From: an uncultured Pseudomonadota bacterium
Lineage (GTDB): Bacteria; Pseudomonadota; Alphaproteobacteria; Acetobacterales; Acetobacteraceae
DNA length: 64,000 nt
Assembly: GCA_963736975.1 (NCBI GenBank)
Contig: CAVTQY010000002.1
Location: 364,949 to 428,948, forward strand
Direction of reading: 5' to 3'
The translations under genes and the position numbers were made by a program. This document shows positions 4,956 to 37,960 of the stretch, one piece after another (position 1 is the stretch's first letter; every line of letters begins with the position of its first letter). The notes under the pieces were generated by a model. That model did no database searches. It saw nothing but the letters and a program-made list of their open reading frames with translations, and was not told the origin of the DNA.

Positions 4956-5738
4956 TCAACGGCCGCGGAACACAGGGCGCCTCTTTTCGGCGAAAGCGGT
5001 GACCGCCTCGCGGTGGTCCTCGCTGAGACCGGTGCGCGCCTGATGCACCGCCTCCATTTCCAGTACCGCCGCCAAAGGCTCCGTCTCGGCGGCATGCAAG
5101 TTGAGTTTCATATAACCATAGGCAAGGCGAGGACCTGCTGCAATGCGCCGGGCAAGCTGCATCGTCTCGTCCATGAGTACCGCATCGTCAGTCAGCTGGT
5201 TGACCAGCCCGATGGACACCGCTGTTTCGGCGTCGATCGTCTCTCCCAGCACATACAACTCACGCGCTTTGGCAGCCCCGACGAGGCGAGTCAGCAGCCA
5301 GGAGCCGCCGAAATCGCCCGAATATCCGATGCCCGAAAACCCTGTGCCAAAACGCGCGGAGCGAGCGGCAACACGGAAATCGCAGGCCATGGCGAGCCCT
5401 AGGCCAGCGCCGACCGCGGGCCCATTCACCATAGCGATGATCACTTTCGGGTGGCTGCGCATCAGCAGCGGCACCTGATGCATACGGCGCAGGCGCTGCA
5501 CACGCTGCTCGAAGGTCTGGTGCGCACGACCTGCCATGTCTTTCACGTCGCCCCCGGCGCAAAAGGCGCGACCGGCGCCGGTCAAAACGATGGCGCCAAC
5601 CGAGGCGTCGTCCGCTAGCCGGGTCAACGCCGCGTACAGCGTCGCCAGCATGTCCGGCGAGAAAGCGTTCAGCCGATCAGGCCGGTTGAGTGTCAACACG
5701 GCGACGCAATCGTCGATCGCTTCGGTCAGGTCGGTCAT
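4956..5738 (-). CDS. Enoyl-CoA hydratase/isomerase (crotonase) family protein
   Basis: 260 aa with LTLNRPDRLNAF...IVLTGAGRAFCAGGDVKDM...KVIIAMVNGPAVGAGLGLAMACDFRVAA, the crotonase oxyanion-hole motifs. Confidence 0.85.
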   Translation of the reverse strand: MTDLTEAIDDCVAVLTLNRPDRLNAFSPDMLATLYAALTRLADDASVGAIVLTGAGRAFCAGGDVKDMAGRAHQTFEQRVQRLRRMHQVPLLMRSHPKVIIAMVNGPAVGAGLGLAMACDFRVAARSARFGTGFSGIGYSGDFGGSWLLTRLVGAAKARELYVLGETIDAETAVSIGLVNQLTDDAVLMDETMQLARRIAAGPRLAYGYMKLNLHAAETEPLAAVLEMEAVHQARTGLSEDHREAVTAFAEKRRPVFRGR

Positions 5739-10395: not shown

Positions 10396-10566
10396 GATGG
10401 CTGCTGGCCGAGGGCGGCAGTGCGGCGACAAACAGCGGCGGCCCGCGCCCATCATGGGGCGGCATAGGGTTAAGCAGTGGCCCTGCTCCTGATCCGATCC
10501 TGATTAACGACGTCTCAGCACGCGTGTGCTTCCCCTGGGGCGGCATCCCGAAGCGGAACCGCGCCA

Positions 10567-10828
10567 ATGCCGACGTTGAGCACGTTCTATGGTATCGGTG
10601 ATTCAGATGTTCTGGCAGGAACATCCGCCGCCGCACTTCCACGCCTTGTACGCGGAGCACGAGGCATTGATTGACATTCAGACGCTTGACGTCATCGAGG
10701 GAAGCCTGCCCCGCCGTACGCTTACTCTTGTGCGTGAGTGGGCGCGCGTACATCGTGCTGAACTGATGGAGGACTGGAATCTATGCCGGCAGAGGCAGCC
10801 GCCCAAGACGATCGAGCCGCTTCGGTAA
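10567..10828 (+). pseudogene. DUF4160-family gene interrupted by a +1 frameshift near nt 10597
   Basis: ATG 10567 encodes MPTLSTFYGI. After one extra G (~10597) the ORF-track frame (10589..10828) continues VIQMFWQEHPPPHFHALYAEHEALIDIQT... Joined, the sequence matches the canonical DUF4160 N-terminus (MPT.S.FYGI.I.M...EH.PPHFHA.Y.E). Confidence 0.6.
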
Positions 10829-11115
10829 CACCAACCATACGTCCGACTGCTCCGTGGCGGGTGCAGGAGGTGAAGGCGCTACCAGACGACCGCCTGTTCG
10901 TGCGGTTCATCGATGGGCTCAGGGGCATTGTCGATCTTTCCGCGCTCATTGCGTCGCCGAACGCGGGGGTATTCGCGCGCCTGCAGGACCGGAGCTTGTT
11001 CGAGCAGGTTCGGGTAGAAATGGGGGCCGTCGTCTGGCCCGGCGACCTGGATCTTGCCCCCGACGCGATGCACGCCGCGATCAAGAAACACGGGGAGTGG
11101 AGGATTGCTCCCTAG
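10783..11115 (+). CDS. DUF2442-family protein
   Basis: 110 aa. ...WRVQEVKALPDDRLFVRFIDGLRGIVDLSALI...GAVVWPGDLDLAPDAMH is the DUF2442 pattern. GGAGGA lies 9 nt upstream of the ATG. The gene overlaps the DUF4160 3' end by 46 nt. Confidence 0.65.
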   Translation: MPAEAAAQDDRAASVTPTIRPTAPWRVQEVKALPDDRLFVRFIDGLRGIVDLSALIASPNAGVFARLQDRSLFEQVRVEMGAVVWPGDLDLAPDAMHAAIKKHGEWRIAP

Positions 11116-11350: not shown

Positions 11351-11635
11351 TTGGTACAACGACTCGAGCCGCCAAGGTCGACCCCAAACGGTTCAATGCG
11401 CGCCGTCGGTTTTCGACCGTCCCCACCGTGATACACCATCAGCTCCGCCCGCGGTGCCAACGCGGCCATATCCGACCAGGACCATCGACATCGAAACTGT
11501 TGGACATTTGGGGATATCGGCCGAAAAATGTCGGTGCGTGCGGCCGCCGCGCGGCAATCAGCGGCCGCGCTTGACGGGCGCCGCGAATGTCGGCCCTGCC
11601 CGGCCGGCTGCTTCGAGAACGGCGCAGGAGGCGAT

Positions 11636-13290
11636 ATGGATTATCCTTACGACCTCGGCCCTTATTCCCGGACGGTGACCACGGCCTCGGCGGACGCCCA
11701 GCGCTGGTTCGACCGCGGCCTCAACTGGTGCTTCGGTTACCACCATGAGGAGGCGATCGCCTGCTTCCAGAAGGCGCTTGAGGCCGACCCGAACTGCGCC
11801 ATGGCGCACTGGGGCATCGGCTACGCGGCCGGGCCGAACTACAACTTCCCCTGGGAACTGATGGACCCCGCGGGTAAGGCGGTGGCACTCGCGCGCGCCC
11901 ACTCTGCCGCCTGCGCAGCCCTCGCGCTGGCCGGAGGTGCCACCGCGCCGGAACGGGCGCTGATCGGGGCGTTGACCACCCGCTATCCACAGCGCGACCC
12001 CATCGAAGACCAGTCGCCCTGGAACGACGCCTTCGCCGATGCCATGCGCCACGCACACCAAGCGTATCCAGACGACCTCGACTTACGCGCCATATTTGTT
12101 GAAGCGATCCTCAATCGTACGCCCTGGCTCATGTGGGACCTGCGTACCGGCGAGCCCGCGCCCGGCGCCGGCACGCTGGAAGCGCGCGAGGTGCTCGAGT
12201 GCGCCTTCCGCGATCTGCCCGGGGCGATGGACCACCCCGGTCTTCTGCACCTGCATGTGCACCTGATGGAAATGTCACCGCATCCGGAGGTTGCGTTGGT
12301 AACGGGTGACCGACTGCGCGAGATGAGCCCGGACATGGGCCACCTGGTTCACATGCCCACGCACATCGACATTCAGTGCGGCTACTATCGCGACGCGATG
12401 CACTGGAATCATAAAGCGATCGTTGCGGACCGCAAGTTCTATGACCTCGCCGGGCCGATGAATTTCTATTCGGGTACCGGATACATAATTACCATTTCGC
12501 CGCTTACGGGGCTATGTTCCTCGGCCAGTACGCGCCGGCGATCGCGGCCGTTGACGAGCTGATCGCGACCATGCCGGAAGCGTTTCTGCGCATTCCTTCA
12601 CCGCCCATGGCGGATTTTTTCGAAGGATACGTTTCCATCAGGCAGCACGTGCTGGTGCGCTTCGGCAAATGGCGCGAGATCATCGCGCAGGAGTTGCCGG
12701 CCGATCGCGAGCTGTTTTGCAACACCGTGGCGATGATGCACTACGCCAAGGGCGTCGCCCACGCCGCGCTGGGGGAGGTGCAAGCAGCGGAGGCGGAACA
12801 GGCGCTGTTCAGGGACGCCGCGAAACGCGTCCCGAAGTCGCGGCAAATCCACAACGTGTCCTGCGTGCAGCTTCTGGCTGTGGCCGAGGAGATGCTGGCG
12901 GGCGAGATCGCGTATCGGCGAGGCGAGCACGATGCGGCGTTCGCGCGTCTCCGCGCTGCCGTTTCGCTGGAGGATGATCTGCCGTACGACGAGCCGTGGG
13001 GGTGGATGCAGCCGGTCCGCCACGCGCTGGGTGCGCTGCTGCTGGAGCAGGGCCGCCCGGCGGAAGCCGAGGTGGTGTATCGCGAGGATCTTGGGCTTGG
13101 GGGCGCGTTGCCTCGGGCGCAGATCCACCCCGACAATCTGTGGGCTCTGCGCGGGCTGCTCGATTGCCTCGAGCGGCGGGGCGAGACGGCGGAGGCCGCA
13201 CTTATTCGCCAGCGGGTGAAGTTCGCGGCGGCGCGTGCAGATTTGCCGGTATGGGTGTCCTGTTTCTGTGCCGGCGGCATGGCGGCCTGA
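11636..13290 (+). pseudogene. TPR-like helical-repeat protein gene split by a -1 frameshift at ~12472-12475
   Basis: ORFs 11528..12562 (ATG 11636, GGAGG upstream) and 12514..13290 are two halves of one protein. The frame changes inside TCGGGTAC. Reading ...PMNFYS then, in the second frame, YRIHNYHFAAYGAMFLGQYAPAIAAVDE restores a continuous sequence. Confidence 0.65.
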
Positions 13291-14276: not shown

Positions 14277-17200
14277 ATGGTTCAGTCCACGCTGCATCTC
14301 GAAGTTGCAGAGTTCCGCGATGCCGATCATTGGCGCTTTGTGCTGAAGGAGGCCGGCGGGGCGTTCCTGGCCGACCACGTCGCCGCGCTCGATCGGGCCG
14401 ATGCCCACTATGCCGCGCTAGTCGATCTGCCGGGCTATCTGCGCATGCATAGCGCACCGGATACCCGTGCGGCTGATGAGCAGCGGCTACTTGTTGAGGT
14501 AGGTAGTTGGATCGGCAAGCAAGTGTTGGGCCGGAGCCTTGCGGAGAAGCTGCTGTCGCGGGTGCCGCCGTCGGTGGTGGTGCGCGTGCTGGTCCCGCCG
14601 ACGGCAGAGCGGCTGCTCGCGTTGCCGCTCGAGATCGCACGGCTGGACGGCGGCGAGCCCCTGTCGGTGCAGGGCGTCAGCTTCGTGTTCGAGACGACCG
14701 GCACGGCGCCGCCACGAGCGGAGCCAGTCGGCGAGCGGCTGCGCATCCTGGCACTATTCAGCCTGCCGCCGGTCGGCAGCCCGCTGAATCTCCGCCGCGA
14801 GCGGCAGATGCTGCGTAATCTGGTACGCCGCTTGGCCGGCGCGGCCGGTCTTGGGGTGGAGTTGCACGTCCTGCAATACGGCGTGACGCGGAAGAGCCTG
14901 CAGGAGGTGCTGGAGCAGGGCGAGGGCTGGGACGTCATCCATTTCTCCGGCCATGGCCAGCCGGGCGCGCTGCTGCTGGAGCGCTCCGATGGCAAGCCGG
15001 ACGAGGTCTCCTCGATCGATCTCGCAAAGCTGCTCCGACAGGCGGGCGGACGGGTGAAACTGGTGACCTTGTCGGCCTGCCTGTCGGCAGCGGCCAGCGT
15101 CGCGCAGACGCTGTCCTGGCTTGGCTTCTCGGAGGGAGAGGCGGCGAAGCGCGACGCCTCGCCGGCTGTAACCACGGAAAAGCAGGACACCAAGGCGGCG
15201 CCGACGGTCGCGCGGGCGCTGACCGAAACGCTCGATTGCGCGGTACTGGCGATGCGCTACGCGGTCGAGGACGAGTTCGCGATGAACCTGGCGCGGGAAC
15301 TCTACGACCGGCTGTTCCGCCAGAAGCAGCCATTGCCGCAGGCGACAAGGCTGGCGCTTGCCAGTGTCGCTGGGGGCGAACGAGGAATCCCCGCCGTGGG
15401 TGCGCTCTCCGCCGCGGCGCCGGCGCTGTTCGGTCCACGTTCTGCGGACCTGATGCTCGTCCCGCCCAAGGGCACGGGGATCGACGCGGATACGTCGCTC
15501 GCTTTCGTGCCGAAGCTGCCGGAGCACTTTGTCGGCCGGGTGTCGGCGATGACGCGCGCGAGCGCGGCGCTCGCCACCGAGAGCAGCCGGAGCGGCGTTC
15601 TGTTCCACGGCATGGCGGGCGCCGGAAAGACCAGCTGTGCGGTCGAGCTCGTTTATCACCACGCCGCCGTTGGCCGGTTCCAGCGCTTTGTCTGGTTCTC
15701 GGCGCCGGAGCAGGGCAAGGACATCGCCCTGGCGCTGCGTGACTTCACACTGGCGCTGGAACGCCAGATCCCCGACCTGGCCATGCTGCAGGTCATCGAC
15801 CGCACCGACGCGTTGCGCGACTGGCTGCCACGGCTGGCTGAGGTGCTGGAGAACAACGCGCTCCTGATCGTGCTGGACAACCTGGAGAGCCTGCTGACCG
15901 AGGCGGGGGTATGGCGGGACGAGCGCTGGGGGTTGCTCGTCGAGGCCCTGCTGACCGCGGGCGGGCTGTCGCGCACGGTGCTGACCAGCCGCACCCGCCC
16001 TGCCGCGCTGCCGGAGTCGACCGAGGTAATCGCGGTGCACGCACTGCCGCGCGACGAGGCGCTGCTGTTGGTGCGCGAGCTGCGCAACCTGCGCCGGTTG
16101 CTCGACGGTGCGAAAGAGACCGGCGTGAGCCAGGAGGCGGGCCGGCAACTGGTGCGCCGGGTGCTGCGCCTGGTGCAAGGCCATCCCAAGCTGATCGAGC
16201 TGGCCGAGGCGCTGGCCGCGGCGCCGGCAAAACTGGCCGCGCAGCTCGACGAAGCCGACAAGGCGCAGACCGCGGGTGCCGGCGAACTCGACGCCTTCTT
16301 CGCCCAAGGCGAGACGCGACTCGGTCCGGCGGAATTTGTGGAGAGCCTGCATGGCTGGACCCGCGGCATCGCCGGCGCACTACCGGAGGCTGCACGCACC
16401 GGCTTCCATTTCCTTTGCGCCCTGGAGGAGGGTGACCGGCAGGGTTGGATCATCGCGGCCAACTGGTCGGACGTGTGGCAGCGCCTTGGCCGCCCGGCGC
16501 CGGCGCCGGATTTTCAAGCGGTGCTCGCCCCGCTCGTCGCGGCAGGGCTGGTCGACAAACAGGCGACCGCCGACCAGGCGGACGAGTTCGAAGTGCTGAT
16601 CCATCCTGGCATCGCCGAGGCCGGCCGCGCCGAGGCTGGCGCGGACCTGCAGGCCGCCGTCGATCACGAGCTCGCCGCGACGTGGAACACGCTGTTTCGG
16701 AACGCTTGGAAGGCGGAGGGCCGTGAGGCCTGGGCCGGCCCAATGATGGTGCGCGCCGGGCTGCACGGCTTCCCGTACTTCGCCCGCCTTGGGCACTGGG
16801 AGTTGGCTGCGGGAATGATGGACAGGGCCGTGCATCTGGACACATCGCCCGGTACGATCGCCGCAGTGCTGCCGCTGCTACAAAAGGTGGTCTCTGCCGC
16901 GACGGGCACCGAGCGGCAGAATGCGGAAAACCGCGGCATCCTCGCCAAGGTTCTCGAACTGGCCGGCCGGACCGGCGAGGCGGAAGGCCTGCTCCGCGAC
17001 CTCATCGCGCAAACTGCCGAGCGGGGTGAGTTTGGGGCCGCCTCTGTAAATTCAGGCACTTTGGCCAAACTGCTCCGGCGCACCGGTCGGGCGCGCGAAG
17101 CCTTACAAGTAATCGAGCGGCAGGCCGAATACACCAAGCAGGCAGGCTACGGGGCATGGACACAGTTAGCCGACGAGGTTCGGCGTCTGCAGATCCGCGT

Positions 17201-18071
17201 CGAGCTTGGCGAACATAGCGATGTGCTCGCGCGCGTGCTGGAGCTGCGCGGGCAGATGCACCAGTTGCCCGATCCGCCCGAGGCGAACGACCGGTCGGTG
17301 ACCACGTGGAATGTGCGTGAGACAATGTTGGATGTCGGGCGCAACGCTGCGGTGGAATCAGGTGAATGGCAGCCAGCCCTTGATCTCAACGCTGAGATTT
17401 TGCAGAGCAGCGTCAACCGCGGCGCCGGGGCTTTTGAACTTGCGCGTGGCCGGTTCAACGATTACGGGCCGCTACTGCGGCTGCAACGTTATGGTGAGGC
17501 CCGCAGCCTTTTGCAGCACTGCCGGGACGTGTTCGAGCAGGAGAACGCCGTGGCGGAGCTCGGGGCGGTGTTCTCTGGCCTTGCGGATCTAGAGGACGAG
17601 CTCGGCCGTAAAGAAGCGGCGGGGCGTTTCGAGCAAACGGCAATTCGCTACGAATATGCTGCGGGAAACCCCAGCAGTATCGCTATCAGCCACTTCAATC
17701 TCGCCAAATACCTGACCAAGGCGGATGGCGATTGGCGCGGCGCGCTCGGACATCGGCTGGCCGCGGCAATGATCAGATGCATCACCGGATCGGCGGGATT
17801 GGAGCAGGCGATCACGGCACTCGCCAGGGATCTTCGCAACGCCGGCGGCCAGGCGAGCGCGGCTCTGCCCGGCGATTTGGCCGCGCTGTATGCGGACGTG
17901 CAGCAAGTCGAAGGCGTGCGCTTCCACGAGTTGATGCAGCGACTGCAGCCGGACGAGGCGGCACTGGAACAGCTCCTGCAAGACATTATCGCCGGTGCGA
18001 AGAAACGGGCCGACGCAAATGACGGTGCATCGCCTGATCGCGGGCCACAGCAGGGGGAGGGGTCACAATGA
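14277..18071 (+). CDS. CHAT (caspase-like) protease - STAND P-loop NTPase - TPR-like repeat protein, 1264 aa
   Basis: The CHAT dyad context is WDVIHFSGHG (His226, nt 14952-14954) and KLVTLSACLS (Cys268, nt 15078-15080). Walker A is VLFHGMAGAGKTS (nt 15609-15632) and Walker B-like is NALLIVLDNLESLL (Asp534). The C-terminal ~450 aa are helical repeats. It is a single uninterrupted ORF with coding-like G/C third positions. Confidence 0.85.
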   Translation: MVQSTLHLEVAEFRDADHWRFVLKEAGGAFLADHVAALDRADAHYAALVDLPGYLRMHSAPDTRAADEQRLLVEVGSWIGKQVLGRSLAEKLLSRVPPSVVVRVLVPPTAERLLALPLEIARLDGGEPLSVQGVSFVFETTGTAPPRAEPVGERLRILALFSLPPVGSPLNLRRERQMLRNLVRRLAGAAGLGVELHVLQYGVTRKSLQEVLEQGEGWDVIHFSGHGQPGALLLERSDGKPDEVSSIDLAKLLRQAGGRVKLVTLSACLSAAASVAQTLSWLGFSEGEAAKRDASPAVTTEKQDTKAAPTVARALTETLDCAVLAMRYAVEDEFAMNLARELYDRLFRQKQPLPQATRLALASVAGGERGIPAVGALSAAAPALFGPRSADLMLVPPKGTGIDADTSLAFVPKLPEHFVGRVSAMTRASAALATESSRSGVLFHGMAGAGKTSCAVELVYHHAAVGRFQRFVWFSAPEQGKDIALALRDFTLALERQIPDLAMLQVIDRTDALRDWLPRLAEVLENNALLIVLDNLESLLTEAGVWRDERWGLLVEALLTAGGLSRTVLTSRTRPAALPESTEVIAVHALPRDEALLLVRELRNLRRLLDGAKETGVSQEAGRQLVRRVLRLVQGHPKLIELAEALAAAPAKLAAQLDEADKAQTAGAGELDAFFAQGETRLGPAEFVESLHGWTRGIAGALPEAARTGFHFLCALEEGDRQGWIIAANWSDVWQRLGRPAPAPDFQAVLAPLVAAGLVDKQATADQADEFEVLIHPGIAEAGRAEAGADLQAAVDHELAATWNTLFRNAWKAEGREAWAGPMMVRAGLHGFPYFARLGHWELAAGMMDRAVHLDTSPGTIAAVLPLLQKVVSAATGTERQNAENRGILAKVLELAGRTGEAEGLLRDLIAQTAERGEFGAASVNSGTLAKLLRRTGRAREALQVIERQAEYTKQAGYGAWTQLADEVRRLQIRVELGEHSDVLARVLELRGQMHQLPDPPEANDRSVTTWNVRETMLDVGRNAAVESGEWQPALDLNAEILQSSVNRGAGAFELARGRFNDYGPLLRLQRYGEARSLLQHCRDVFEQENAVAELGAVFSGLADLEDELGRKEAAGRFEQTAIRYEYAAGNPSSIAISHFNLAKYLTKADGDWRGALGHRLAAAMIRCITGSAGLEQAITALARDLRNAGGQASAALPGDLAALYADVQQVEGVRFHELMQRLQPDEAALEQLLQDIIAGAKKRADANDGASPDRGPQQGEGSQ

Positions 18072-26769: not shown

Positions 26770-26846
26770 GGACCCGTAGCTCAGTTGGATAGAGCGTCGC
26801 CCTCCGAAGGCGAAGGTCGCACGTTCGAGTCGTGTCGGGTCCGCCA
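26770..26846 (+). tRNA. tRNA-Arg (anticodon CCG)
   Basis: Hand-folded cloverleaf: GGACCCG-TA-GCTC-AGTTGGATA-GAGC-G-TCGCC-CTCCGAA-GGCGA-AGGTC-GCACG-TTCGAGT-CGTGT-CGGGTCC-G-CCA. 77 nt with an encoded CCA. Confidence 0.9.
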
Positions 26847-28984: not shown

Positions 28985-31231
28985 ATGTCGGCATGGATGC
29001 CAGCGTTATTCGCGCGTGCACTGCTGCGCGCAATTCCGATGTTCATCATCGCCTGCACCGGCGCGGCAGCGGCGCCATCCTTCACCGAGGCATCCGTACC
29101 CCCGGCAAAGCTGCCGGCCATCTCAGGCACTATGCTGACAGTCAGCCCCGGCGGCCAGTACCCCGATCTCGCTTCCGCATACGCCGCGTCGAAGCCGGGC
29201 GATACGATCATCATCGCCCCCGGCAGCTACACAGGCGGTCAGGCAGCCCGAAATGCGGATGTAACAATCCGCCATGACCTCACGATCAAGTGCCAGCCAG
29301 GCGCAGTTTTCGACAACCCGGCAACGACGATCGACCCAAAGAACCTGAAGGCGGCGAATGTCGCCAAGGGCTATCTCGTTATCGGGAACCAGCGCAATCT
29401 TCCCTTCACGCCCGACGTCCTGATCGATGGCTGCACGTTCCAACATGCTATCAGCTTCAGCTATAACGGCGCCGGCATCCGCTACCAATCGGGCAACCTG
29501 ACCGTGCGGAACTCGACCTTCCGCGACAACCAGATGCATATCCTCGCACCACCCACGGTGACCGGCAGCGGCAACATAACGCTTGAAAAGGATACCTTCC
29601 TCACCGGTGCGTTTGCGGCGACGGGCCTCGGACACGCCCTTTACATCGGCACCGTCAAGTATTTCACCATCGCGAACAGCAAGGTGATCGGCGTCTACGA
29701 CGGCCACGGCGTGAAAACCCGCGCCGCCAACAACCTGATCAAGGACAACACGATCGGCGACGGGCCGGGCGAGGACGGCCAGATGAGTTATCAGATCGAG
29801 GCAGCGGAGAACGGCAACACGATCGCGGAGGGCAACACGTTGGAGAAGGGCCCGCATGCGACGAACTCGGCCTTCATCCAGACCGGAACCCTGGATGGCG
29901 TCGCCTGGCCCGACACCACGATCATCATCAGGAGCAACACCTTCATCGACGACCATGACGGCGAAGGGGCAAACGCCACGGGCCCGATCAGGGCATTGTG
30001 GAATATTTCCCTGACCCATGTGCAGATGACGGGCAACAAGTTCGTCAACATGGCCAGGAGCTTCGATCAGGACGGCAAGAACTGGGCGCTGCAAGGCACC
30101 GTAGATTTCACCGGGAACGTGGACGGAAACCGCAGACCGATTCCCGACGCGCACCTTGTCGGCTACAATTATTCGTGGCGAACCGTGGATTACAGTTCCT
30201 CAACCGGTCCGGTGACCTACACCACGCCGCCCGGCCCTCCTATGACCGTGATCGGCGGCGCTGGCAAGCTCACCTTCAACAATCAGGGCCGCAACTGGAC
30301 GGTGATTTCCGGACCGGGCGGACTCTCGGTGGCCGATACAGGCGGTCGGCTGCGCGTGATCACCGCCGCGGGGTCCAAAAGTATCCTGTCGTTGCTCGGG
30401 TCCTCGCGCTACTCGGGATACGGCGATGACACCGTGACATTCGCCGGCAGAAGCAACGGAACCGGCCCCCGTCCCGGGGGGAACCAGATCTATGGCACGG
30501 CCGCGATCAGCGAGCCGGTCGATTTCGGCCTGGCTGCTTACGCCGTCACTGGTGCCGCGACGATCCACATGGCCGGCGGCACGCGGCACTTCCTGGGCGA
30601 GGTATATCCCGGCGGTTCAATGTCTGTTTCCGGGCCGCTCGGCCCGTCGCTTTCGGTCGGCGAACAGGGCGGTTCGCTCAGCCTCGACGTAACGCAAGCG
30701 GATACCGGCACCGAAAGTATCGCCGACCTGCGCGGCGGCTGCATGTCGGTTCTCCGGGGAGGCAAAGCGGACAACCCGATCACCATCACCGTGATGCCAA
30801 TGGAAGGCGCGGATCTGGCGACCTTCAACCCATCCCCGCGCGGGTTCAGCACCGCACCTGCCATATCCCTTCGTCGTGGCAGCTATCTTATCCACAACTT
30901 CGATCAGCACCTGATCGTGAACGTGTCGAGCGGCGATCAGAGCATCGCTGTTTCCAATGGAGGCAACGAGGCGGTGCCGCGGGAGCGCGCCGTGACGGAA
31001 TTCCGGGTTGATGCCACGGCGAACACCGGCACGACGATGATCACCGCTTTCGCCGGGGGCGGTGCCCGGTTCGCTGATGGTCGATGGGGCAAGGTCACCA
31101 CGTTCCGTCTCAGTTTCTCCGGCTTTACCGGCAACCCCATCGCGGCCGGAGCCGAGACAGGGCCGGATCTGAGGCTCACACTGATCAACGGCAAGACGAT
31201 CGTATTGAAGAACACGCGGGCCGGATCGTAG
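28985..31231 (+). CDS. Secreted right-handed parallel beta-helix repeat protein (pectate-lyase-fold, glycan-active?)
   Basis: ORF 28958..31231 with a signal-like MSAWMPALFARALLRAIPMFIIACTGAAAAPS. Repeated N-rich rungs (GNLTVRNSTFRDNQMHI, NNLIKDNTIGDG, GNTIAEGNTLEKG, IIIRSNTFIDD) are typical of the beta-helix fold. The C-terminal ~350 aa are Gly/Ser/Thr-rich. Confidence 0.7.
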   Translation: MSAWMPALFARALLRAIPMFIIACTGAAAAPSFTEASVPPAKLPAISGTMLTVSPGGQYPDLASAYAASKPGDTIIIAPGSYTGGQAARNADVTIRHDLTIKCQPGAVFDNPATTIDPKNLKAANVAKGYLVIGNQRNLPFTPDVLIDGCTFQHAISFSYNGAGIRYQSGNLTVRNSTFRDNQMHILAPPTVTGSGNITLEKDTFLTGAFAATGLGHALYIGTVKYFTIANSKVIGVYDGHGVKTRAANNLIKDNTIGDGPGEDGQMSYQIEAAENGNTIAEGNTLEKGPHATNSAFIQTGTLDGVAWPDTTIIIRSNTFIDDHDGEGANATGPIRALWNISLTHVQMTGNKFVNMARSFDQDGKNWALQGTVDFTGNVDGNRRPIPDAHLVGYNYSWRTVDYSSSTGPVTYTTPPGPPMTVIGGAGKLTFNNQGRNWTVISGPGGLSVADTGGRLRVITAAGSKSILSLLGSSRYSGYGDDTVTFAGRSNGTGPRPGGNQIYGTAAISEPVDFGLAAYAVTGAATIHMAGGTRHFLGEVYPGGSMSVSGPLGPSLSVGEQGGSLSLDVTQADTGTESIADLRGGCMSVLRGGKADNPITITVMPMEGADLATFNPSPRGFSTAPAISLRRGSYLIHNFDQHLIVNVSSGDQSIAVSNGGNEAVPRERAVTEFRVDATANTGTTMITAFAGGGARFADGRWGKVTTFRLSFSGFTGNPIAAGAETGPDLRLTLINGKTIVLKNTRAGS

Positions 31232-31237
31232 GGTTTG

Positions 31238-32470
31238 TCACGTCGGCCGGACATGCTCCGGCAGAAAGCCGAGCCCGACCAGCCGGGCTGCCAGCCCACG
31301 CAGCGCCGGCACGTTCTGCATCAGCCGCAGCGCGAGCGGCACGGTTGGGGTCGTGTCCGCCGCCAGCACACGGCGGATCACCCGGTTCTGCAGCAGGATC
31401 TGCAATCGCTGCGTCAGCCGCGTCGGTGTCTCCCGCCGGCGCTGCACGGCCTTTAATGTTTCATGCGAAACATGGCCGGCCCGCAGAGCGGGGATCAGGA
31501 TATTGGCTGCCGCGACCGCATCCTGTATCGCCAGGTTGATGCCCACGCCGCCGATCGGCGACATGGCGTGCGCGGCATCGCCGATCAGCAACAGACCGGG
31601 GCGGTGCCATTCGCGCACGCGGTTCACCGCCACGGTCAGCAGCTTCACATCGTCCCAACTGTTGATCTCATCGACGCGATCGGCAAAAGCCGGCACCAGC
31701 CTCGCGATCTCGGCGCGAAACGCCGGCAGGCCCCTTGCATGTATGTCATCCACCGCACCTTTGGCGATCACGAATGCGCATTGCCAGTAATCGCCGCGGT
31801 CGATCGTGATAAAGATCCGCCCGGCGGTGACACGACCCAGTGAAACCTGCGGATCGTCGTTGCGGCGCGGCAGCCGTAGCCATAACACGTCCATCGGTGC
31901 GCCGAGATCGAGCACCCGGAACCCTCCGGCCTCGCGCAAGGTTGAGTGTCGCCCATCGGCCGCGACCACCAGTTCCGCGCTGATCTCCAGCTCACGGTCC
32001 GGCCCGCGGGCACGCAACCCACGCACGCAGCCAGCCGCTTCGATCAGACCCGTCGCCTCTGTCTGCATCAACAAGCGGAAGCTTGGGTAGGCTTTCGCGC
32101 GACTGGCCAGGAAGTCGAGGAAATCCCATTGCGGCATGAGAGCGATGAAGCCGCAGCGCGTCGGCAGATGGGTGAAATCGGCAACCTCCAACACGGTATC
32201 GCCGATCTGCGCGCCGAGCGTTCGTGCCTTGGCGTGCGGGAGCTTCAGCAGGTCGTCGAGCATGCCGAGCTCATGCATGACCTGCAGCGTCGAGGGATGA
32301 ATCGTGTCGCCGCGGAAGTCGCGCAGGAAATCGGCGTGCTTTTCCAGCACGGTCACATCGATACCGGCGCGAGCGAGCAGCAGCCCCAGCATCATGCCGG
32401 CAGGGCCGCCGCCGGCGATGCAGCAACGGGTGGATAGAGCGGCCATCGGGCGAGAGCTTAGCACCGGCAC
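31238..32470 (-). CDS. FAD-dependent monooxygenase/oxidoreductase
   Basis: Dinucleotide-binding motif CCIAGGGPAGMMLGLLLARAGIDVTVLEK, plus LLIGDAAHAMSPIGGVGINLAIQDA (GD motif). Confidence 0.8.
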   Translation of the reverse strand: MPVLSSRPMAALSTRCCIAGGGPAGMMLGLLLARAGIDVTVLEKHADFLRDFRGDTIHPSTLQVMHELGMLDDLLKLPHAKARTLGAQIGDTVLEVADFTHLPTRCGFIALMPQWDFLDFLASRAKAYPSFRLLMQTEATGLIEAAGCVRGLRARGPDRELEISAELVVAADGRHSTLREAGGFRVLDLGAPMDVLWLRLPRRNDDPQVSLGRVTAGRIFITIDRGDYWQCAFVIAKGAVDDIHARGLPAFRAEIARLVPAFADRVDEINSWDDVKLLTVAVNRVREWHRPGLLLIGDAAHAMSPIGGVGINLAIQDAVAAANILIPALRAGHVSHETLKAVQRRRETPTRLTQRLQILLQNRVIRRVLAADTTPTVPLALRLMQNVPALRGLAARLVGLGFLPEHVRPT

Positions 32471-32493
32471 GGGAAGAATGGAGGGGCGTTTTC

Positions 32494-32805
32494 TTACCTC
32501 GTGACACTGCGCAGGAAGGACCGATCCTCGTTCAGGATGCAGCCCGAGGCATCGACGCGGCGAGCCGTCTCGGCGGCGGCGGGATCGGCGGCGAGCTTCT
32601 CCCGATACCGTTCATAGCAAGCGAGGTCGGGAAAATCGATGAGGCCCAGCGCGATGTTGGTCGGGCCGGCGAATTTGGTCGGCAGGTAGTAGTGCGCGGA
32701 GGTGCCGCCGCAGCGCTCGATATGGGCGGGCAAAGCTCGAGCATACGCGTCGAAATCGGCCATTTTGTTGATATCCAGCGTGTAGCGGATGCAGAGGGTG
32801 AACAT
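32494..32805 (-). CDS. NIPSNAP-family protein
   Basis: 103 aa. MFTLCIRYTLDINKMADFDAYARALPAHIERCGG... is a ferredoxin-like dimeric alpha-beta barrel pattern. Confidence 0.7.
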   Translation of the reverse strand: MFTLCIRYTLDINKMADFDAYARALPAHIERCGGTSAHYYLPTKFAGPTNIALGLIDFPDLACYERYREKLAADPAAAETARRVDASGCILNEDRSFLRSVTR

Positions 32806-32902
32806 GCGCTTCTCCCGATCGTTGTGACCGCAGGGAGATGATCCGGGGAGCGGGTCCGGTCGAGTGCGAACGCTTCGGCGCTGACCGAAGCGAGGGAGGC
32901 CT

Positions 32903-33196
32903 AGTGCGCAGTATCAGGGCACGGTGCAGTCCGCCAAGGCGGCGATCGCCACCGACCAGCTCAACATAGCGTACTGCCACATCGTCTCCCCGATTGATGG
33001 GGCGCGTCGGCCTGCGTCTGGTGGATCCCGGCAATTATGTGCAGACCAGCAACACCGCGGGGATCGCCGTCGTCACCCAGTTGCAGCCGATGTCACCTCG
33101 AAGACGCTGCCGCTGATCCAGGTGGAGGATCTCGGTGATACAAGGCTGGCGCAGAAGATATCGCAGCCGCCCGGCGTGGGGCTGGTCAGCATGGGC
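32903..33196 (+). pseudogene. Fused remnants of an RND efflux operon (MdtA-like membrane-fusion fragment + MdtB-like permease fragment)
   Basis: QYQGTVQSAKAAIATDQLNIAYCHIVSPIDG, then (frameshift in the GGGG run at ~32998-33001) RVGLRLVDPGNYVQTSNTAGIAVVTQLQPM, is the centre of an MFP. It is directly joined to IQVEDLGDTRLAQKISQPPGVGLVSMG, which recalls from memory an N-proximal periplasmic-loop segment of MdtB-type RND permeases (not aligned to a reference). Both fragments lack starts and ends. Confidence 0.55.
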
Positions 33197-33420
33197 TCGA
33201 TATCGACGGCCTACGCACCACGCCTGACAATGCCAATGTGGATGATCCGAAGGGCAGCGTCTACGGAGTTGGCTTCGAGCGGGAGGCCCGTGCGGGTGGC
33301 GTAGCGGCGTTCGATGTTCTCGATGTGTTTCACGTGAAACGTTCGTAAATAAACAGTAAACGAGGCGCTGGTATAAGGGCTCGTGCGCCGGTCCGATTAT
33401 CTGGGCGTAGCTGCCGCGAG

Positions 33421-33548
33421 GTTGTACAACAAGGCGTTTCGGGGCGATGCGCGTTGTACAACGGGGCATTTTGGGGCGCCGTCGGTTGTACAACAGGGCT
33501 TTTTGGGGCATGGCCAGTTGCACAACAGGGCTAAAATCGGGTGCGCCA
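33421..33548. repeat. Four tandem 32-bp iteron-like repeats, each starting with the 10-bp palindrome GTTGTACAAC
   Basis: The units start at 33421, 33453, 33485 and 33517, an exact 32-bp register. They read GTTGTACAACAAGGCGTTTCGGGGCGATGCGC / GTTGTACAACGGGGCATTTTGGGGCGCCGTCG / GTTGTACAACAGGGCTTTTTGGGGCATGGCCA / GTTGCACAACAGGGCTAAAATCGGGTGCGCCA. Confidence 0.9.
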
Positions 33549-33617
33549 GATGTACGTTTGGACGGCTGATCGTCTCGGATTTGAGCTAAGAGTTAGGCAC
33601 CGCTAAATTTTTGGGGA

Positions 33618-36072
33618 ATGCCGATGTCGCCCGAGGGTTGGGAGCGGGGTAGGTCGGGCATTTACGTGTGGATAAGAATTGAGAGGTGGCCATTGTGCCC
33701 ATCGGCGACGGGTCGAGGACCGGGGGGCCTCGCTGCATGGCGGGCCATTCGGCGGCATCAATGCCTCTTTCCTCGAGTCCGGTCAAAGGTCGACTCCAGG
33801 CACAAGCTCGCCGAGACCGACCGGACAGGCGCGGCAAAACTTGTCGCGGAGTTTCACGCCCGGCTTTGCGGCGTGCGCGTGTTGATCCGGCCTGCGGGAC
33901 GGGGAATTTTCTGTATGTGACGCTGGAGCTGATGAAGCGGCTGGAAGGGGAGGTGCTTGATCTGCTGGTTGATCTGTCGCCGGGCGAAGGCGATCGGTTA
34001 TCGCTGAGCGGGGCGAGCGTTGATCCGCACCAGTTTCTTGGATTGGAGAAGAATCCGCGCGCTGTGCCTGTGGCAGAGCTTGTGTTGTGGATCGGCTGGT
34101 TGCAATGGCATTTCCGGACGCGCGGCAAGGCTCCGCCGGCGGAGCCGATCATGCATGACTTCCATAATATCCAGGAACGGGACGCGCTGCTGGCTTATAC
34201 GGATGAGGTGCCTGAACGCAACGCACGGGGCGATCCGATGACGCGTTGGGATGGCCGCACCTTCAAGCTGCATCCGATCACCGGGGAGGAAGTGCCGGAC
34301 GAAACGGCCAGGGTTCTGACGTTGCGGCCGGTGGGGGCGATGGCTCAGAGTTGGCCGGCAGCCGATTTTGTCGTCGGCAATCCGCCGTTCATCGCCGGCA
34401 AGGATTTGCGGACGGAGCTTGGCGAGGGCTACACGAAGGCTCTGTGGGGGGCATATCCGGACGTGCCGCGTTCGGCCGACCTCGTCATGTTCTTCTGGTG
34501 GAAAGCGGCGGAGCTGGCGCGAACCAGCGATCTGCCGCGGCGGTTCGGCCTCATCGGGTCCAACAGCATCCGGCAGACCTTCTCGCGCCGCGTCATGGCG
34601 GCGGCGCTGGAGGGCAAGCGCCGGCTGCATCTGGTGTTCGCCATTCCGGACCATCCGTGGGCGGACGGCGCCGGGGCGGCTGCGGTTCGGATCGCGATGA
34701 CGGTGGCTGAGCGATCGATCTCGGCGAAGCGGACCGGCCGGCTCGCCACGGTGACTGCGGAGCGAGCGGTAAAGGAGGGTGCGCCCGAGGTCGAGTTGGC
34801 GATGCGCGAGGGGGTGATCAACGCTGACCTGACGGTGGGGACGGATGTAACCTCGGCGCGGCCGCTGAGGGCGAACGAGGGGCTGTGTTGTCCCGGCGTA
34901 AAGCTGCATGGTGCAGGATTTATCGTCTCTCCCGCAACTGCACGCGGGCTGGGGTTGGGACGGATTGCAGGGTTGGAGCGGCATATCCGGCCTTATCTGA
35001 ACGGGCGCGATCTGACGCAGAGAAGCCGCGGGCAGATGGTGATTGATCTTTTCGGGCTCACGGAAGATGAGGTGCGGCAGCGGTTTCCGGCGGTGTACCA
35101 GCACGTCCTGCTGCGGGTTAAGCCAGAGAGGGATCAGAACAACCGGCCCAGTTATCGCGACGCGTGGTGGGTATTCGGCGAGCCGAGGCGGGAGCTGAGG
35201 CCTGGTTACGTGGCCTGCGACGTTATACCGCTACTGTGGAAACCGCGAAGCACAGGCCGTTTGTGTTTTTGCCGGCTGAGACAATTGCTGACAACATGCT
35301 GGTCTGTTTCGCCAGCGATGACGCATTGCATCTGGGTGTTTTGTCGTCGAGGTTCCATGTTGTTTGGGCGCTCGCGGCCGGTGGTCGGCAGGGCGTAGGC
35401 AACGATCCTCGATACAATAAGACACGTTGCTTTGATCCATTCCCTTTCCCATTTCCCACCCATTCGCAGGCGGAGAAGATTCGGGTCGCTGCCGAGGAGC
35501 TGGACACACATCGGAAGGCTCGACTGTCCGCCCATCCTGAGCTCACCCTGACTTCCCTTTATAATGTGCTCGTTGCTTTACGCGCCGGCGCCCCACTCTC
35601 GCCGGCGGAGCGCGACATCCATGATGCGGGGCAGGTGTCGATCCTGCGTGAGTTGCATGATCGGCTGGATGCAGCCGTTGCCGCTGCGTATGGTTGGCCG
35701 GTTGACTTGAACGACAGCGAGGTCCTCACACGACTTGTGACGTTGAATGCGGAGCGCCGAGCCGAGGAAGAGGCCGGGCTCGTTCGCTGGCTTCGGCGCG
35801 AGTATCAGGCTCCGGAGGAGACTGGCAGGCGTGCGACGCAGAGCAGCCTTGTCATCGAAGAAACGACCGTCGTGGAGGCGCTTCCCTGGCCGAAGCGGAT
35901 ACCCGACCAGTATGTCACTCTGCGTGCGGCACTTGCTGGGCATCCGGCGACGCCGACCGAGCTGACCCGCCGCTTCGTTCGGGCGCCGCGTACCCGCATG
36001 AAGGAGATGCTGGAGGCGCTGGTCGCCATGGGGCAGGCTCGGCAGGTCGGCGACGGGCGGTATGTGAGTTGA
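33618..36072 (+). pseudogene. Decayed MmeI-like (type IIL/IIG-like) N6-adenine DNA methyltransferase, 5'-truncated and frameshifted
   Basis: Motif I is split by a missing G at 33884: ...AEFHARLCGVRVL (frame of ORF 33618) / DPACGTGNFLYVTLE (ORF 33686). Motif IV is FVVGNPPFIAG. A second frameshift at ~35198-35203 joins ...WWVFGEPRRELR to LRGLRRYTATVETAKHRPFVFL...LGVLSSRFHVVW...CFDPFPFP (ORF 35164..36072). Only ~90 codons lie upstream of motif I, versus several hundred in full-length relatives. Confidence 0.7.
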
Positions 36073-36387: not shown

Positions 36388-36463
36388 TGGCTCCCGGAGT
36401 AGGACTCGAACCTACGACCCAGCGGTTAACAGCCGCTTGCTCTACCGACTGAGCTATCCGGGA
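36388..36463 (-). tRNA. tRNA-Asn (anticodon GTT)
   Basis: The reverse complement folds as TCCCGGA-TA-GCTC-AGTCGGTA-GAGC-A-AGCGG-CTGTTAA-CCGCT-GGGTC-GTAGG-TTCGAGT-CCTAC-TCCGGGA-G-CCA. 76 nt. Confidence 0.9.
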
Positions 36464-36557: not shown

Positions 36558-36992
36558 GTGCTCAAAACGCTGACCCGTCTGCACACGCCGGACCTTCTGC
36601 ATGTGCTCGCCTCCATGGGGCATGGCGACGATATCGCCATCGTGGATGCGCATTTCCCGGCGGTGGCGTTGGCCCGAAGGCTGGTGCGGCTGGATGGGGC
36701 GGACCTGCCGGAGGTGGTGGATGCCTGCCTCGCGCTGATGCCGCTCGATGATTTCGTCGATGCGCCGGCGCGGCGGATGGAGGTGGTAGGCAAGCCGGAT
36801 GAAATTCCGGACGTGCAGCGGCTGTGCCAGGCGGTGATCGACAAGCGCGAAGGCCGTCCGGTGCGGCTGGTGGGCACGGAGCGGCACGCCTTCTATGCCG
36901 ATGCTCGGGCGGCCTTCGCGATCGTGCTGACCGGCGAGTTGCGGCCGTATGGCTGCCTGTTGCTCAAAAAGGGCGTGGCGCTGCCGGCATGA
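36558..36992 (+). CDS. RbsD/FucU-family sugar mutarotase/pyranase
   Basis: 144 aa (GTG start). LHTPDLLHVLASMGHGDDIAIVDAHFP...FAIVLTGELRPYGCLLLKKGV is typical of FucU/RbsD. Confidence 0.8.
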   Translation: MLKTLTRLHTPDLLHVLASMGHGDDIAIVDAHFPAVALARRLVRLDGADLPEVVDACLALMPLDDFVDAPARRMEVVGKPDEIPDVQRLCQAVIDKREGRPVRLVGTERHAFYADARAAFAIVLTGELRPYGCLLLKKGVALPA

Positions 36993-37960
36993 GTGGGGAA
37001 GGGCGCCTGCGGGTCGGCATCCAGGCGATTCACCGGCAGGCCGAGCCTTCCAGCCTACCATGGCGGCCGGCGATTGATGAGCTGGTAGCGCTGGTCGAGC
37101 TGGTCGATCGGTCAGGCTACGACTTGCTGTGGGTCGGTGACCATGTGTCCTTCGCCGTGCCCATGCTCGATCCGTTGCTGCAGTTGGCGCAGGCGGCCGT
37201 GGTCAGCCGGCGGCTGACCCTGGGCACCGCGGTCTATCTGCTGCCGCTGCGGCATCCGGCGCCGGTGGCGAAACAGGTGTCGACGCTCGACCACCTGACC
37301 GAAGGACGGCTGATCTTCGGGGTGGGGGTGGGCGGGGAGTTTCCGCAGGAATATGCGGCGTGCGGCGTTCCGCTGCAGGAGCGGGGCGCCCGTCTGACCG
37401 AGGCGCTCGGGCTGTTGCGGCGGTTCTGGAGCGGCGAGCCGGTGAGCCATGCCGGGCGGTTTTACGGCCCGTTCAGCGATGTGAGCATGCAGCCGCCGGC
37501 GCGGCAGCCCGGTGGACCGCCGATCTGGCTGGGCGGCCGCTCCGAGGCGGCGCTTCGACGTGCGGGGCGGATGGGCGACGGCTATCTGTCGTATGTGGTT
37601 ACGCCTGAGATGTACGGGGCTGCGCTCGGCACGATCTGGACCGAGGCGGAAGCGGTCGGGCGCAGCCTGGACGGGTTCGGCACCGGGCACCTGCTGTTCA
37701 CGCGGCTGGATGCAACCTATGAGGCCGCGCTGGACGCGGCGACCGCCACGCTTTCGGTCCGCTACGCGATGGATTTTCGTCGGGCGGCGGAGCGGTACTG
37801 CGCGCTTGGCCCTCCGGCTGCCGTGGCGGAACGCATCCGTGCTTTCCATGCCGCCGGGGTGCGGCATGTGATCCTGGACTTGCTCGGGCCGTATCAGGAG
37901 CGCGAGCGGCAGGTCGCCTGGTTCGCCGCCGAGGTGATGCCGCTGCTTCAGGACCTGTAG
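36989..37960 (+). CDS. LLM-class (luciferase-like) flavin-dependent oxidoreductase
   Basis: ORF 36824..37960. ATG 36989 overlaps the upstream stop (ATGA). LLWVGDHVSF...LTLGTAVYLLPLRHPAPVAKQVSTLDHLTEGRLIFGVGVGGE. Confidence 0.8.
   Translation: MSGEGRLRVGIQAIHRQAEPSSLPWRPAIDELVALVELVDRSGYDLLWVGDHVSFAVPMLDPLLQLAQAAVVSRRLTLGTAVYLLPLRHPAPVAKQVSTLDHLTEGRLIFGVGVGGEFPQEYAACGVPLQERGARLTEALGLLRRFWSGEPVSHAGRFYGPFSDVSMQPPARQPGGPPIWLGGRSEAALRRAGRMGDGYLSYVVTPEMYGAALGTIWTEAEAVGRSLDGFGTGHLLFTRLDATYEAALDAATATLSVRYAMDFRRAAERYCALGPPAAVAERIRAFHAAGVRHVILDLLGPYQERERQVAWFAAEVMPLLQDL

Follow-up and report, generated by a model that had tools for sequence, protein, structure and literature searches.

The operator of the E. 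coli toxin-antitoxin genes yefM-yoeB contains a long repeat, TCATTGTACAATGA, with the core TTGTACAA, and a short TGTACA repeat (PMC1802561). In the crystal structure of the S. aureus YefM-YoeB-DNA complex the YefM dimer reads TTGTACA via Arg10-Gln11 and Tyr6-Ser7, and mutations in the GTAC box abolish S. aureus YefM binding (PMC7544224). R10 and R31 are essential in E. coli YefM (PMC4803016). The subject of this study is a tandem array of palindromes with the same 8-bp core, TTGTACAA, located at 33421-33558 in a 64,000-nucleotide stretch of DNA (the window) from an uncultured bacterium of the Acetobacteraceae (contig CAVTQY010000002.1). It was this core that led, by literature search, to YefM. 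A first-pass annotation of the window had drawn attention to the array and had offered for it both a plasmid-type origin or centromere and a protein-loading function.

Arrays of this kind are linked to genes of a rare protein family in which a TetR body is followed by a Phd-like domain. The array in the window may be an orphan that has partly decayed, on whose several sites a TetR-Phd-type protein would be loaded in trans, and we put the probability of this reading at roughly 55%.

Anatomy of the array

The palindrome GTTGTACAAC occurs on the plus strand at 33421-33430 (P1), 33453-33462 (P2) and 33485-33494 (P3), followed by the variant GTTGCACAAC at 33517-33526 (P4). The exact 32-bp spacing of these four repeats, already reported in the first-pass annotation, was confirmed in the sequence and by Tandem Repeats Finder (period 32, 3.5 copies, score 118), which ranked the array as the top-scoring tandem repeat of the window. 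When one mismatch was allowed, the palindrome had 4 matches in 64 kb against 0.39 expected. All 4 are inside the array, and this count was reached in 0/100 shuffles. The same strand carries a fifth site, GATGTACGTT, at 33549-33558 (P5; 1 match vs 0.04 expected). It keeps the exact phase and is an addition to the four repeats originally described. A profile of the repeat unit identified no second copy within the window.

The spacers contain a second motif, (T)TTTGGGGC. Spacer 1 (33431-33452) is AAGGCGTTTCGGGGCGATGCGC and carries the motif as TTTCGGGGC at 33437-33445. When the units are aligned, spacer 2 (33463-33484) and spacer 3 (33495-33516) both carry it as TTTTGGGGC, at 33469-33477 and 33501-33509, respectively. 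In each case the motif sits in mid-spacer, with its centre 16 bp from the centre of each neighbouring palindrome. Spacer 4 (33527-33548, AGGGCTAAAATCGGGTGCGCCA) is degenerate. The earlier statement that a shared motif follows the palindrome in every unit is thus correct for units 1-3 and not for unit 4.

The core TTGTACAA with its GTAC box is present in P1, P2 and P3, and P5 has the GTAC core. In P4 a T>C change turns GTAC into GCAC. P4 is probably inactive, since GTAC-box mutations abolish YefM binding (PMC7544224). With P1-P3 and P5 intact and the P4 core lost, the array appears to be partly decayed. On sequence grounds, the array core is a defined Phd/YefM recognition site.

The array is non-coding, as had been proposed, because a 32-bp period does not preserve the reading frame and none of the overlapping open reading frames (ORFs) has a family match. 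Several other classes of repeat were considered and rejected. A CRISPR array was ruled out because the 22-bp intervals are mutually homologous and share a conserved motif, and Pfam scans gave no cas domains. A G-quadruplex was ruled out because each unit has one conserved G4 tract and the first tract often reads GGAGC or GAGGC. A CsrA-type GGA motif was ruled out because the position in question is R and is not conserved. One GTAC pair elsewhere in the window also has a 32-bp spacing (10716/10748). It is apparently coding, lacks the TGTACA palindrome and was attributed to chance.

A dispersed family and its linkage to TetR-Phd genes

One genome per species, 185,579 species in all, was scanned for two palindromes 20-24 bp apart (periods 30-34 bp), which generated 44 loci. 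10/44 loci, from three Acetobacteraceae metagenome-assembled genomes (MAGs), share the unit of the window array, GTTGTACAAC-GGRGC-N-GTTTGGGGC-GCNNNN. They represent at least six independent loci besides the window. Loci common to different species are L004/L041, L002/L016 and L030/L034/L019. The family is a discrete element of ~106 bp and not an open-ended repeat, because the number of palindromes at 32 bp is exactly four in nearly all copies. In loci whose flanking genes could be called, the element begins ~4-20 bp past a stop codon with the G-rich strand as the sense strand. The genes upstream of the relatives' arrays encode a DegT aminotransferase, prephenate dehydrogenase, an M20 peptidase and others. 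They are functionally unrelated, which ruled out a shared regulon. The detected copy number, from incomplete genomes throughout, is 1-5 arrays per Acetobacteraceae MAG and one in the 64-kb window.

Conservation is concentrated in the two motifs. In 30 aligned units, palindrome positions 3-10 are invariant, T18-C25 (TTTGGGGC) nearly so, and the rest variable. Between orthologous arrays of different species the palindromes plus TTTGGGGC differ at 3/182 positions, compared with 32/104 (31%) for the other spacer positions (Fisher p=6e-13). In the adjacent gene, third codon positions show 36/200 differences (p=3e-8 vs the motifs). On these counts the palindromes are under strong purifying selection between species. 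All spacers, here and in a second family from Shimia sediminis described below, are exactly 22 bp in a scan that allowed 20-24 bp.

Two other searches for the element came back empty. In metagenome contigs of the Joint Genome Institute the two-unit pattern had 0 matches, and the one-unit pattern had 7 single chance matches and no arrays. A literature search with GTTGTACAAC returned primers and unrelated uses only.

In L019, L030 and L034 an ORF ending ~20 bp before P1 has a weak Phd/YefM match at its C-terminus. It encodes a conserved protein of ~260 aa with a TetR-like body and a C-terminal Phd-like domain, ending ...LQVAESHVVRKRFSTVMDVVEAGGEVVVTRRGKRVAKVVGVG*. The fusion gene is present in 3/3 MAGs with dispersed arrays. 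The family is rare. A database search identified only 21 relatives, and an exhaustive profile search of 1.84 billion representatives gave 38 clusters at E <=1e-30, about half of which include the C-terminal domain. PF02604 was matched by 17/19 members, and several members are above the TIGR01552 cut-off. Positions 22-205 of the family profile match TetR structures, while positions 237-275 match residues 2-40 of the P1 phage protein Phd (4zlx, 3hs2, 3hry; E about 4e-5). The AlphaFold (AF2) model of the fusion protein has a mean predicted local distance difference test score of 87.6 and a C-terminal domain of beta-alpha-alpha-beta-beta order. The equivalents of YefM Arg10 and Arg31 are conserved in the family, and some members have weak NCBIfam matches to RefZ. 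A literature search found no description of this domain architecture or of the phased arrays.

DNA around six further family members was fetched, which together with the L019/L030/L034 group gives seven lineages. In three of the six, GTAC-core sites follow the stop codon of the TetR-Phd gene. L076 (58% identity to the L030 protein) has four GTAC sites with spacings of 43, 43 and 30 bp, the first of them 8 bp after the stop. L077 (46%) has GTGTACAC twice, 31 bp apart, with a second copy 2.4 kb away by a duplicated gene fragment. In L081 (44%), 16 bp past the stop, there are two copies of CGGTACCG with a spacing of 33 bp. Two lineages have their sites upstream of the gene: GTTGTACAAG, CTTGTACAAC and GATGTACGTT, spaced 42 and 31 bp, in L079 (48%), and two GTAC sites 30 bp apart in L080 (48%). 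L078 (42%) has no GTAC-core array. Taken together, phased GTAC-core arrays lie <=300 bp from the TetR-Phd gene in 6/7 lineages. The 600-bp gene flanks of six of these lineages contain 10 phased GTAC pairs in total, with at least one pair in 5/6, and the seventh lineage is positive too. The background is 4 pairs in 150 kb, equivalent to 0.016 per flank, and 2 of these 4 are the window's own array and 1 is the L077 duplicate.

The spacings in these other lineages, 30-33 or 42-43 bp, correspond to 3 or 4 helical turns. Together with a spacer whose length is fixed while its sequence evolves fast, they suggest a helical-phase constraint on duplex DNA. The window array also shares a specific site with two of the lineages. 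Its terminal 10-mer GATGTACGTT (P5) also ends the arrays of L076 and L079, in the same position and orientation, and occurs elsewhere in the 81 fetched loci once, in an unrelated viral contig. The residues that align with YefM Y6/S7 were compared with the bases flanking GTAC. SH and TS are found with TT-GTAC-AA, CS with TG-GTAC-AA, CR with GT-GTAC-AC and YG with CG-GTAC-CG. This apparent covariation between reading residues and flanking bases, in five or six lineages, is suggestive only.

The duplication in L077 (7310-7410) consists of a Phd-domain-start fragment, RLKVDCRQARARLRE, then GTGTACAC and GTACAC 31 bp apart. It indicates that an array can be copied along with the 3' part of a TetR-Phd gene. 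A proposed homology of the dispersed arrays' leaders to the TetR-Phd gene's 3' end was dropped, being no better than in shuffles.

GAAC-N7-GAAC is the alphaproteobacterial LexA box (PMC4211646, PMC9578287). It is present ~10-30 bp upstream of the start codon (position 4001) in L077, L078, L079 and L081, with N8 instead of N7 in L076, and was not seen in the L019/L030/L034 group. Its presence suggests that TetR-Phd genes may be under SOS control.

A second dispersed family was identified in Shimia sediminis (the CCATGTTGTACAACATGG element), for which 18 of ~26 loci were analysed (L003-L043). It has the same palindrome and 32-bp period with unrelated, mosaic spacers. These are built of WTTTTTT, WTGGAGAGTC and WTGGTCA arms in either orientation, with 2-3 palindromes per element. 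Of the intergenic regions that hold these elements, 7 are convergent, 7 tandem and only 1 divergent. Phd-like ORFs were absent from the vicinity of all 18 loci, of the L001 palindrome pair and of the window array. The L001 pair is in a divergent promoter region and was judged a separate operator-type case.

The remaining uses of the palindrome were set aside. Viral contigs (L046-L065) were rejected as family members because their palindrome pairs belong either to NVVQQ-coding repeats in a phage gene or to irregular phage operator clusters. The coding repeat, in which GTTGTACAAC recurs 30-33 bp apart, is found in low-GC phages and prophages (L046-L065; L020, L022, L040), apparently in a small terminase-like gene. 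L015 (5639-5680) and L021 (10-51), from Kofleriaceae and an Acidobacteriota genome, each have three CGTTGTACAAC sites with a 16-bp period, by which they were classified as separate operator-type arrays with the same core. L021 has an ordinary Phd-like ORF 3 kb from its CGTTGTACAAC sites.

A different explanation of the dispersed copies is a repeat of the repetitive extragenic palindromic (REP) or bacterial interspersed mosaic element (BIME) type, acting, if at all, at the RNA or single-strand level through 10-bp stems and 22-nt loops, with no Phd-type binder. Adjacent palindromes would pair and would stabilise or terminate upstream transcripts, or the copies would be selfish or structural DNA. 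Their dispersed, extragenic location with a preference for gene 3' ends is what such a repeat would show, and the strand and distance relation to the upstream stop codon given above holds in every determinable case. The regions occupied by the Shimia elements and their mosaic build point the same way. The predicted fold pairs P1 with P2 and P3 with P4, with modest z scores (-2.1 sense, -3.0 antisense).

The stems themselves argue otherwise. No compensatory change was detected in any of 20 stem pairs in nine copies, and all seven deviating cells break pairing. The loop keeps an invariant length while its sequence diverges by 31%, and an RNA loop would need neither fixed length nor helical spacing. 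The low copy number detected in these incomplete genomes and the retention of copies at orthologous loci across species under purifying selection also count against a REP-like repeat. Rfam gave no match at E <=1 other than tRNA and a chance miRNA match, and the window ORFs scanned include no RAYT-type gene or Y1 transposase. Finally, the linkage to the TetR-Phd gene would be left without explanation. We consider a REP-like repeat unlikely. The first-pass annotation had allowed that the unit might turn out to be a dispersed generic REP, and half of that description applies: the element is dispersed, but its detected copy number is low, its phasing is kept and its palindromes are conserved.

The decayed island around the array

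The array sits in a decayed island between tRNA-Arg (26770-26846) and tRNA-Asn (36388-36463). Pfam assigned the ORFs at 26.9-36.1 kb to an FkbM methyltransferase, a beta-helix protein, an FAD monooxygenase and MmeI remnants, and detected no Rep, Par or integrase genes among them. The rest of the window consists of ordinary chromosomal genes, including purF, cvpA, radA, polA, serA, accC, aroQ, znuABC, purA and hisZ.

Both neighbours of the array are pseudogenes. On the left, fragments of an RND efflux operon at ~32930-33200 on the plus strand comprise the C-terminus of a membrane-fusion protein and, in another frame, an N-terminal piece of the pump. A 40-codon minus-strand ORF just downstream of these opposite-strand fragments (33211-33333) has no family match and is probably spurious. 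On the right, the decayed methyltransferase gene noticed in the first pass was identified by Pfam as the remnant of an MmeI-type (type IIL-like) restriction-modification gene at 33686-36072 on the plus strand. It has a methyltransferase domain (33686-35398) and, in a different frame, a target recognition domain (35164-36072), and its N-terminal nuclease part is missing. Because the array lies between pseudogenes, it probably has no remaining regulatory target.

The position of the array, ending ~130 bp upstream of the GTG at 33686 on the same strand, would suit a local operator of the restriction-modification gene. That gene is a truncated and frameshifted remnant, however, no promoter-like site was found at 33000-34000, and identical elements flank unrelated genes in relatives. 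A local operator is therefore scarcely credible.

The 14-bp palindrome at 33327-33340, which had been noted only as the site of a GTG start, is real and proved to be part of a parS. The site, TGTTTCACGTGAAACG at 33326-33341, agrees with the canonical ParB-binding sequence used in ParB work (PMC7053999) at 15/16 positions (0.07 expected at <=3 mismatches). It lies in decayed non-coding DNA, 80 bp upstream of the array, and is not part of the repeat family. The centromere-type sequence nearby would then be this parS and not the array. A weaker match (14/16) at 31457-31472 is inside the FAD monooxygenase gene.

Among the neighbours of the array is also a perfect DnaA-box 9-mer, TTATCCACA, at 33667-33675 on the minus strand. 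The only other perfect box of the window is at 30888-30896 on the plus strand, and a box with 1 mismatch is at 33237. Relaxed DnaA boxes are not clustered beyond background. The two perfect boxes flank a switch in GC skew, which changes from negative to positive at ~32-33.5 kb (about 32000-33600 in the profile over 1-64000). The switch also holds at third codon positions and for genes on both strands, with values of about -0.03/-0.04 to the left and +0.17/+0.08 to the right, and the block at 33.6-46 kb is unusually strong (+0.13 to +0.33).

The skew switch marks either a change of polarity like that at an origin or the junction of a rearrangement. In L073 and L074 an enoyl-CoA hydratase (ECH) gene directly abuts a luciferase-like monooxygenase (LLM) gene. 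In the window the two are 31 kb apart (ECH 4956-5738, LLM 36989-37960), with purF, cvpA, radA, polA, both tRNA genes and the island between them. Their separation is a lineage-specific rearrangement. As gene order departs from that of relatives exactly here, the skew switch may be a rearrangement junction. The breakpoint could not be mapped against L073 and L074, as the intergenic DNA is too diverged.

The first-pass annotation had suggested that a mobile element might have left the array behind as a relic origin, iteron set or centromere. F sopC and iteron arrays are similar in being phased direct repeats, each with a dyad core. In this case a plasmid or integrative and conjugative element (ICE) would once have occupied the interval between tRNA-Arg and tRNA-Asn. 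A decayed island between two tRNA genes, the MmeI remnant and the RND-pump fragments are in keeping with such a history, as are a parS, a perfect DnaA box and an AT-richer 40-bp stretch (65% A+T, a local maximum) within 250 bp. The comparative evidence is contrary to it. The same element is found in relatives at 7 or more ordinary, unrelated chromosomal loci, after unrelated housekeeping genes where these could be called, and the fetched loci of relatives have no parS or perfect DnaA box. Their annotated flanking genes are neither Rep nor Par. A blastn search with 33300-33700 against 72,556 plasmids and 50,697 phages came back without a hit, and viral contigs show unrelated uses of the palindrome only. 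The island itself lacks rep, par and integrase genes. For a centromere in particular, the array palindrome GTTGTACAAC is not a parS, and the 64-kb window has no parA or parB. We regard a plasmid or ICE relic as highly improbable.

The array might instead belong to an origin-proximal or partition region of the chromosome and work with the adjacent parS and DnaA boxes. The skew sign change, the canonical parS at 33326 and the location of both perfect TTATCCACA boxes (30888 and 33667) are the reasons to consider this. An oriC was rejected in view of the unclustered relaxed DnaA boxes, together with the absence of CtrA sites and of origin marker genes (dnaA, parAB, gidAB, hemE) from the 64 kb. No AT-rich stretch looks like a genuine unwinding element, the order of genes departs from that in relatives at exactly this point, and arrays of the family elsewhere are not near parS. 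An origin or partition function for the array is very unlikely.

Two other features of the window were observed at a distance from the island. A protein of 1264 aa that combines CHAT protease and NB-ARC (STAND NTPase) domains is encoded at 14277-18071, preceded by two TPR proteins (11528-13290). The block has a locally positive skew and may be an NLR-like defence or cell-death module. A small gene pair at 10560-11115, ending in a DUF2442 protein (10783-11115), is possibly a toxin-antitoxin-like module and holds the chance GTAC pair at 10716/10748.

A proposed loading array in the light of known systems

The idea of a phased multi-site loading or operator-like array whose binder is encoded elsewhere was already present in the first-pass annotation. 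It has gained from the analysis, given selection on the palindromes, exact phasing and a core that is a documented protein site. By analogy with YefM, each TTGTACAA palindrome would bind a dimer of a Phd/YefM-fold domain, with Arg10- and Arg31-type residues reading the GTAC box. The 32-bp spacing would set all dimers on one face of the helix and so favour cooperative binding. The cognate protein is likely to be the rare TetR protein with a C-terminal Phd-like domain, supplied in trans, as the linkage of gene and array suggests. More speculatively, the protein might chain along the array via two dimer interfaces, because the TetR and Phd parts can each dimerise. TTTGGGGC might be used by a TetR helix-turn-helix pair or for DNA bending, which is equally speculative. 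Loading would follow DNA damage, since most TetR-Phd genes carry the alphaproteobacterial LexA box.

Several points weigh against a TetR-Phd loading array. The fusion gene is not in the window, although one member of the family may come from the source genome. Binding to the arrays by TetR-Phd family members is something that we infer. Known YefM operators consist of two sites 12 bp apart in a promoter, whereas the array consists of four sites 32 bp apart. An autoregulatory operator would not be expected downstream of the stop codon, where most gene-adjacent arrays are. The array is missing from one lineage (L078), and the covariation of residues and flanks comes from five or six lineages. The Shimia family shares both palindrome and period, yet its 18 loci have no Phd-like ORF. 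The binding model also leaves the role of TTTGGGGC unexplained.

A broader scheme can be put forward as a possibility, with the odds against it. In some Acetobacteraceae an SOS-inducible TetR-Phd protein may polymerise, through its two independent dimer interfaces, on a handful of dispersed, phased GTAC arrays. The nucleoprotein complexes of fixed size formed in this way at gene ends would act as roadblocks, insulators or nucleoid/division signals in the SOS response, and the Shimia sediminis family, with its identical palindrome and period, would mean a wider principle. If binding of the arrays by TetR-Phd proteins holds, an antitoxin DNA-binding domain would have been recruited from toxin control into a TetR-type regulator, probably under LexA control, a new use of the Phd/YefM fold. 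For the alphaproteobacteria the arrays would then represent a dispersed set of chromosomal sites of a new kind. To our knowledge, no SlmA- or Noc-like systems are known in alphaproteobacteria. Two points concern the annotation of such regions. Even inside a decayed island, a tandem repeat that resembles iterons is not necessarily the trace of a plasmid, and a genuine parS together with a strand-asymmetry switch deserves attention in the source genome.

Four groups of described systems can be compared with the array. Plasmid centromere and iteron arrays, such as the 43-bp repeats of F sopC, are likewise tandem phased direct repeats with a dyad core for dimer binding. The array family differs in having several chromosomal copies and no adjacent Rep or Par, and in being absent from the plasmid and phage collections.

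REP/BIME elements and pneumococcal BOX elements share with the array modular palindromic units that are dispersed, extragenic and located mainly at the 3' ends of genes. A further parallel is that the element is found next to one particular protein gene, much as RAYT genes are flanked by REPs. In the REP/BIME-RAYT system there are tens to hundreds of copies per genome, and the palindrome is an imperfect hairpin of 20-40 nt. The array family, in contrast, has a low detected copy number, an exact phasing of three helical turns and positions that are kept across species under purifying selection. Its 10-bp perfect palindrome is too short for a stable hairpin, and the scanned window ORFs have no RAYT gene.

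The sites of the TetR- and ParB-family nucleoid proteins SlmA (SlmA-binding sequences, SBS), RefZ (RefZ-binding motifs, RBM) and Noc (Noc-binding sequences, NBS) are similar in being a handful of specific sites outside promoters, and in the TetR-family reader that the arrays would have. In the present family each site is an array and not a single palindrome, and the fusion has a second DNA-binding domain of antitoxin type.

The YefM/Phd operators, as in the yefM-yoeB and axe-txe promoters, remain the closest relatives at the level of the site. In place of two sites 12 bp apart the array has four or five at intervals of 32 bp. It is not in a toxin-antitoxin promoter and has no toxin gene, and its dispersed copies follow housekeeping genes in those loci whose flanks could be called. 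In the fusion protein the Phd-like domain comes after TetR, at the C-terminus, and not ahead of a toxin-binding tail. The two nevertheless have an identical 8-bp core, TTGTACAA, including the GTAC box. Recognition by a dimer and the cooperative reading of several neighbouring sites would be common to both, and the Phd-like domain of the linked fusion family keeps the equivalents of Arg10 and Arg31.

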